From IMG/VR virus record IMGVR_UViG_3300046787_000508, positions 32,001 through 96,000 of that record: 64,000 bases of DNA, one strand, 5' to 3'. This DNA comes from a virus. Its lineage: Duplodnaviria; Caudoviricetes. Positions 3,824 through 3,962 of the stretch are shown in pieces. The first letter of the stretch is position 1, and every line of letters starts with the position of its first letter. The notes under the pieces are model-generated. The model was not told where the DNA came from. It searched no databases and saw only the letters and a program-made list of their open reading frames with translations. A program made the position numbers and the translations under genes.

Positions 3824-3852
3824 AATATAAGAAAAAAAAATGATAAAAAAAA
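3824..3852 (-). promoter_or_regulatory. Sigma70-like promoter candidate for the primase operon (TTATCA-N11-TATATT)
   Basis: The minus strand reads tttttt-TTATCA-tttttttttct-TATATT-ttcaat-ATG. Confidence 0.45.
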
Positions 3853-3918
3853 ATCCCCAAGGACACCACTCCTCGGGGAAACACCAACTTAATGTATATT
3901 GCTATACATTCCGTCCTA
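3845..3918 (-). ncRNA. Candidate structured small RNA or attenuator leader
   Basis: A TATATT -10 element at 3924-3929; a hairpin AATGTATA-GCAA-TATACATT; a terminator CCCCGAGGA-GTGGTG-TCCTTGGGG followed by A and 9 T. No ORF. Confidence 0.5.
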
Positions 3919-3962
3919 TTTTAAATATACATTTTTTATTTCTAAAAAAGAAATAATTTGAT

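Follow-up and report, generated by a model that had tools for sequence, protein, structure and literature searches.

A covarying RNA family in the RuvC–primase gap of freshwater jumbo phages, read as a candidate phage small RNA

The gap between a RuvC-like resolvase gene and a DnaG-type primase gene in an uncultured phage raised the question of whether the structured element that it contains is a gene in its own right or a control region of one of its neighbors. The gap is 145 nt long and holds the element on the minus strand. It lies in the window analysed here, a stretch of 64,000 nt that forms part of an IMG/VR virus record of 202,894 bp with 34% GC (IMGVR_UViG_3300046787_000508, positions 32,001–96,000); positions below are those of the window unless a genome or locus is named. 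An initial annotation made from the letters alone had placed the element between RuvC and primase, and both genes were confirmed by matches to phrog_159 for the former and to phrog_47 and DNAG_N for the latter. No tRNA or tmRNA gene was found in the window, and blastn found no match to the element region among 50,697 GenBank phages. Among cultured phages the nearest relative is one of Flavobacterium, with 36% primase identity. The clade that bears the RNA consists of uncultured freshwater jumbo phages whose hosts are probably Flavobacteriia.

All of the minus-strand parts listed in the initial annotation were present, namely TATATT, AGGAC, an 8-bp hairpin with a GCAA loop, a linker, a terminator and T9, and the two reported copies of TGGTGT were both located in the element. 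The coordinates are collected in Table 1. The 85-nt element folded at −28.7 kcal/mol, against −15.4 ± 2.7 kcal/mol for 200 dinucleotide shuffles (z = −4.93), none of which folded as well. Its terminator, a GC-rich hairpin with the U-tract directly after it as in intrinsic terminators, ranked first in a terminator scan of positions 1–12000.

Table 1. Features of the element and its surroundings in window coordinates
Feature	Position	Strand	Basis or remark
Promoter-like box TATATTTA	3922–3929 (TATATT 3929–3924)	−	4 nt upstream of predicted RNA 5′ end
Predicted small RNA, about 68–73 nt, A3917 to U-tract	3845–3917	−	R1 match; 5′ end placed by box spacing
Hairpin 1 (P0 + P1 + GNRA loop)	3886–3915	−	P1 by covariation; P0 predicted
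P0, GAC with GUU	3915–3913 with 3888–3886	−	Predicted, pair probability 0.87
P1, 8 bp	3910–3903 with 3898–3891	−	Covariation in 57 sequences
GNRA loop GCAA	3902–3899	−	Read from sequence; family loop counts
Single-stranded linker, GG + variable 0–5 nt	3880–3885	−	With the paired GUU, forms near-invariant GUUGG
Intrinsic terminator hairpin, 10 bp	3854–3879	−	All 10 pairs with double changes
Terminator hexaloop GUGGUG	3869–3864	−	Invariant in family
Terminator U-tract, T9	3845–3853	−	Run of 6–9 T in all members
AGGAC	3917–3913	−	Read from sequence
Box examples in window	3822–3829, 7573–7584, 9631–9643	−	TATATT/TATTTAT type
Promoter-like box of primase TATATTTT	3822–3829	−	4 nt before primase ATG (3817–3815)
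RuvC-like resolvase gene, upstream neighbor	3963–4565	−	phrog_159, E = 1.4e-7
DnaG-type primase gene, downstream neighbor	2876–3817	−	phrog_47, E = 6.6e-42; Pfam DNAG_N

Relatives of the locus were gathered in two ways. Via primase relatedness 66 loci were fetched, and the closest primase relatives (64–73% identity) shared the element upstream of primase. The exact terminator string had no match in IMG/VR and a gapped pattern was therefore used instead, in three context-free scans of IMG/VR, metagenome contigs, and bacterial and archaeal species genomes. The first scan returned 34 distinct members and the second 22 further ones, and the family from IMG/VR and metagenome contigs totals 57 distinct sequences. 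The specific pattern had no match in 185,579 bacterial and archaeal species genomes (one genome per species). With a looser pattern, bacterial genomes gave at least 120 matches, of which 33 passed a T-run/CGG filter and none of these 33 had the family features. The covariance model R1 scored the window copy at 81.3 bits (E of about 1e-21) and found the RNA in single copy in its own genome, and in single copy in each of four other RNA-bearing records, with no relocated copies. Four near-complete (98–100%) genomes of more distant relatives were also searched with R1, which found the RNA nowhere in them. The initial annotation had been unable to assign the element to a known riboswitch class, and no family was matched in Rfam 15 either: at a permissive E-value, positions 3500–4300 gave chance-level matches only, the best one overlapping the element being rli24, whose 18 bits fall far short of its gathering score of 100. 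It is well supported that the element is a new structured RNA family, limited to one freshwater jumbo-phage clade.

R1 was also run against 151 Flavobacteriaceae genomes, where one look-alike was picked up that is conserved in 7 genomes; another match was discarded as coding sequence. The look-alike (L331:1501–1566 in G144, and L336–L341) is unannotated and intergenic, is flanked by genes for a class II aminoacyl-tRNA synthetase and a TPR protein, and has 77–81% identity in 6 related genomes. It is laid out as a hairpin, then UUUGGUUGGU, then a covarying intrinsic terminator, with an AU-rich segment and a UUUUG..UGG stretch, and a search of it against Rfam gave no match. We regard it as a candidate host small RNA, the homology of which to the phage RNA is unproven because its GGUUGG stretch varies and its loop differs.

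The fold was then evaluated by covariation, with the 57 distinct sequences aligned to the covariance model and their pair counts compared with 500 shuffles by five measures. Standard pairs were found in 97.3% of cells against 72.7% in the shuffles, compensatory cells numbered 283 against 78 ± 8, and double-sided changes occurred at 15 of 21 pairs. None of the 500 shuffles reached any of the five measures, and sliding the 3′ partners by 1–3 columns lowered pairing to 36–53%. Double changes were found in five of the eight P1 pairs, with 99.3% of cells paired, and in all ten terminator pairs, where the 5′ arms ranged from C-rich to G-rich. The initial annotation had proposed such a homolog collection and covariation test, noting that conservation of the terminator stem without covariation of P1 would mark an ordinary terminator; both stems covary. 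P0 was invariant except for one-sided changes in one sequence, and since it does not vary this GAC/GUU helix counts as predicted only. G–U pairs were frequent and conserved in the family, which makes the fold specific to the gene-sense strand. In ViennaRNA predictions for 35 members the mean pair probability was 0.97 for P1 and 0.94 for the terminator (range 0.79–1.00), supporting two simple hairpins with no predicted junction, between which tertiary contacts may still form.

Conservation was not confined to pairing. Across the 57 sequences GACGG, the three apical P1 pairs, GUUGG, and GUGGUG with the next U were each at least 95% conserved, and the bases after GUUGG were variable. The GNRA tetraloop was GAAA in 51 sequences, GUAA in three and GCAA in two. 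The stems vary freely while GACGG, the apical part of P1 with its GNRA loop, GUUGG and GUGGUG plus U stay fixed, and the other terminators of the same genome have unrelated loops. The sequence constraint on the family exceeds structural need.

We looked for signals of transcription and translation in the whole source genome (G000). No Shine–Dalgarno signal was seen upstream of its start codons, and a TATATT/TATTTAT-type box was enriched 11–13 nt ahead of the ATG, occurring there in about 34 genes. Primase is one of them, as are both genes of a divergent pair. This pattern suggests a phage promoter class giving leaderless or near-leaderless mRNAs. In all 35 members compared, a box of this type precedes the RNA start at a roughly constant spacing, in surrounding sequence that drifts, and would by its motif and position be the RNA's own promoter. 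Since the spacing from box to start is conserved, the RNA 5′ end lies probably at about 3917, and the mRNAs preceded by the box look leaderless. A T-run followed by the box was also found before primase, both in members and in relatives that have no RNA, such as L056.

Two further classes of upstream motif were observed. In most members, including L079, L127 and L409, GGCAAC followed by ATTTTAC is conserved about 45–55 nt upstream of the RNA start, and GGCAAC is retained whether it is coding, as the RuvC C-terminus, or non-coding. The motif occurs once per genome, solely at the RNA locus, which ruled it out as a general promoter part. The window copy is without these upstream GGCAAC/TTTTAC elements of most members, which may be a regulator site for the promoter of the RNA. 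The Bacteroidota −7 type box TACATTTG, which is distinct from the TATATT/TATTTAT class, has five copies, all on one strand. The perfect form TTACATTTGTA lies on the plus strand outside the window (G000:C1 143797, 158985, 161906, 171044 and 190898), two of the five copies being about 40 nt ahead of tRNA genes. Taken as motifs, the −7 boxes point to a Bacteroidota host and to probable transcription of the tRNA region by the host polymerase. The genome has a cluster of 25 tRNA genes at G000:C1:156712–164232, outside the window, and a tRNA with a CUA anticodon at 161576–161648 is a possible amber suppressor.

The gene order around the unit was compared among relatives. RuvC–primase synteny holds down to 37% identity, and RuvC is directly upstream of the unit in 32 of 35 RNA-bearing members. 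A UDP-glucose-dehydrogenase-like gene of about 275 aa separates RuvC from the unit in L149, L073, L117 and L409. On the other side of the unit, L409 has a 188-aa ORF with its own box before primase, and L359 has an unrelated start of the same kind downstream of the terminator. Three close relatives (L009, L027 and L028) carry other inserts and have no recognizable RNA, with weak matches only; at this place L009 and L028 keep the terminator, T-run and box without hairpin 1, and the loop of the terminator retained in L028 is still UUGGUGU. In L056 the gap is 44 nt long, with the box only and no room for the RNA. The unit is thus polymorphic for presence and has insertions on both of its sides and, given also the relatives that do without it, we take the RNA to be an accessory, self-contained module and no dedicated primase leader.

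The RuvC–primase gap appears as an insertion hotspot in L409 (1254–2785) and also in L149, L073, L117 and L359. The dehydrogenase-like insert is of the UDP-glucose/GDP-mannose type and looks truncated, and the 188-aa ORF has an N-terminal Cys-x-x-Cys motif. In L033–L054, which are distant relatives without the RNA, AAAACTTGTGAAGTTGA is conserved 40–70 nt upstream of primase in a divergent intergenic region.

Our preferred reading, with a probability of about 0.58, is that the element encodes a phage small RNA that acts in trans and is transcribed on its own, its promoter, gene and terminator having been inserted into the RuvC–primase gap as a moron-like unit. The unit is conserved, covarying, strand-specific, single-copy and modular in its context, and we infer its transcription start, its release and its action in trans. 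The phage promoter box would fire 4–5 nt upstream of the conserved GACGG start, and the transcript of ∼70 nt would fold into a long, G–U-rich, GNRA-capped hairpin, a short GG linker and a strong terminator with the GUGGUG loop. Termination would release the RNA, with primase transcribed separately from its own box. The released RNA would most likely act in trans via surfaces that are invariant and either exposed or rich in wobble pairs, namely the tetraloop, the hexaloop, the GG linker and, in the lower stem, two wobble blocks of GAC/GUU. Its partner would be a protein or else a C/A-rich target with which the loops base-pair.

Points against this reading are that the window copy is without the GGCAAC/TTTTAC elements and that the target searches described below turned up no convincing site. 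A further point is that in every member the unit adjoins primase or sits one gene away, a constant nearness that would fit a cis role too. The unit would then be a cis-acting terminated leader, like lambda PR′-tR′ (6S RNA, StxS) or a nut site, where a phage factor at the GNRA hairpin or the conserved loop causes read-through of the terminator into the replication operon, with the short RNA as a default product that might also act in trans. The unit is always upstream of the primase–exonuclease–SbcD block, a GNRA-capped hairpin between promoter and terminator brings boxB to mind, and conservation of the terminator loop hints at recognition of the hairpin itself. However, whether or not a phage has the RNA, its primase gene retains a box of its own at the usual spacing from the ATG, and close relatives manage without the hairpin. 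Furthermore, the terminator can be followed by an unrelated gene that carries its own box, and the distance of about 2–6 nt from hairpin 1 to the terminator leaves little room for polymerase modification. We consider a leader of this kind unlikely.

Less likely still is that the unit is an elaborate terminator or insulator with no RNA function, in which it would form the 3′ end of the RuvC operon and the extra hairpin would stabilize the mRNA and shield the primase promoter. The strong terminator directly after the upstream operon is consistent with this, as are L009 and L028 with their terminators without hairpin 1, but neither termination nor 3′ protection needs an invariant hexaloop, GACGG and GUUGG, a fixed GNRA loop or an upstream box, and a different gene upstream leaves the unit intact. 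A replication-related element, with a G-rich transcript or R-loop and phased T-tracts helping to start DNA synthesis near primase, would suit the location in the replication module, the G-rich RNA and the two to three T-runs downstream. It is very improbable, given that GC skew tracks gene strand only with no inflection at the RNA site, that the strong terminator releases the RNA and that close relatives are without the element.

The initial annotation had described the element as a small RNA or riboswitch-like attenuator, and while the small RNA part stood, the attenuator part did not. In such an attenuator, AGGAC would pair with GUCCU on the 3′ side of the terminator stem, so that a closed multi-stem fold and the terminator would exclude each other, and a ligand would control primase by tipping the RNA from one to the other. 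The complementarity is present as described in the window copy but is not conserved in the family: among 35 members the helix could form in 69.7% of cells, compared with 72.7% for shuffles, and one cell was compensatory. The fixed 5′ segment cannot follow terminator arms that swap C-rich and G-rich polarity. All 35 members were predicted to fold into both hairpins together, none with an alternative fold, and the models gave no multi-stem junction or pseudoknot core. An attenuator of primase would also be expected in its 5′ leader, with no promoter between the two, whereas a promoter-like box, recognized by its motif, lies 4 nt ahead of the primase ATG as it does for about 34 other genes; in L409 an unrelated ORF comes after the terminator, and close relatives do not have the RNA. 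With no Rfam match in addition, the attenuator is hardly tenable.

For the preferred small RNA reading, we searched for targets and partners. No convincing target emerged: no CACCAC site within 4 kb was conserved in at least 5 of 35 members, and a four-genome orthologue screen for ACACCAC left only two clusters with a common site, each time far inside a coding sequence, where selection on the protein could plausibly account for it. UGGUGU matches ACA-CCA (Thr-Pro) exactly in antisense and, as noticed post hoc, the linker 8-mer of the window copy is the reverse complement of ACACCAAC. Among 41,009 distinct 8-mers in sense mRNA, ACACCAAC ranks fifth in abundance with 65 copies, nearly all of which come from fibre genes a few kb away, in the stretches that encode their Pro-Thr stalks. 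Both conserved G/U motifs might then be anti-codon-pair seeds by which the RNA binds repeat-rich late mRNAs and tunes their translation or stability. Of the linker 8-mer the family conserves only GUUGG, some of which is predicted to lie in a helix. Since Thr-Pro repeats occur also in relatives without the RNA (G001–G003) and pure (Thr-Pro)n offers no pairing to the invariant hexaloop, we keep this link only as a faint, low-probability lead.

The ACACCAAC region spans positions 6808–22485 on the minus strand of the window and G000 107892–110332, and the (Thr-Pro)3 codon pattern has 90 matches in the genome against 0–45 in related phages. In the tRNA cluster, tRNA-Pro(UGG) and tRNA-Thr(UGU) read the favoured codons of the Pro-Thr stalks. 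Another post-hoc comparison concerned ribosomal RNA: the majority version of the loop with its closing bases pairs at 8 of 9 positions with AACACCUCC, a motif that we take to be from the Flavobacteriaceae 16S rRNA 3′ tail. GGAACACCTCCTTTCT, presumably the Bacteroidota 16S rRNA 3′ tail, had exactly one occurrence in one Flavobacteriaceae genome and three in another. The RbpB binding motif from the literature, GUAGGAUA, does not match the RNA.

To our knowledge, small RNAs of Bacteroidota-infecting phages are almost unstudied. The RNA described here is a covariation-backed candidate whose predicted ends are defined, which exists in 57 natural variants and whose presence and absence follow a clear pattern; it could enter RNA family databases and offers a concrete object for studying how a jumbo phage uses non-coding RNA in infection. 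The shared promoter box also gives a handle on the transcription programme of an uncultured phage group with apparently leaderless mRNAs.

Several known systems resemble the unit in part. The lambda 6S RNA of PR′-tR′ and StxS of Stx phages are promoter-proximal terminated phage transcripts, and StxS illustrates that such a terminated RNA can also act in trans. Like them, the predicted RNA would be a short transcript that begins at a phage promoter, ends at a strong intrinsic terminator and immediately precedes an operon. It differs in that it has no sequence or structural homology to them, is smaller and has a conserved terminator loop, and in that the downstream gene has its own promoter-like box; unlike for lambda PR′-tR′, we know of no Q-like factor for the jumbo-phage unit. 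The boxB of the lambda nut site, which serves N antitermination, has a 5-bp stem and a pentaloop and is paired with boxA. The unit shares with it a GNRA-type loop and the position of the hairpin between promoter and terminator, upstream of replication genes, whereas its stem is 12–13 bp long, no boxA-like element was noticed and the terminator follows 2–6 nt beyond. With ordinary intrinsic terminators it has in common a GC-rich stem of 9–11 bp and a tract of 6–9 U, and it departs from them by its invariant loop and by a second conserved hairpin and a promoter box in the same unit.

On the small RNA reading, the closest analogs in organization are DicF, IpeX, lambda OOP and the non-coding RNAs reported in the jumbo phage PA5oct (PMC7318152). 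Like these, the RNA would be an accessory gene of 50–100 nt made of one or more hairpins and an intrinsic terminator, with its own promoter and a moron-like place between protein genes. In contrast to these, its host is probably a member of the Bacteroidota, a phylum reported to be without the canonical Hfq and CsrA chaperones (PMC13370968). The RNA belongs to none of these families, having no Rfam match, and where it differs from them in build is that the conserved bases are found in a hexaloop and in a stem rich in wobble pairs, not in an extended single-stranded seed.
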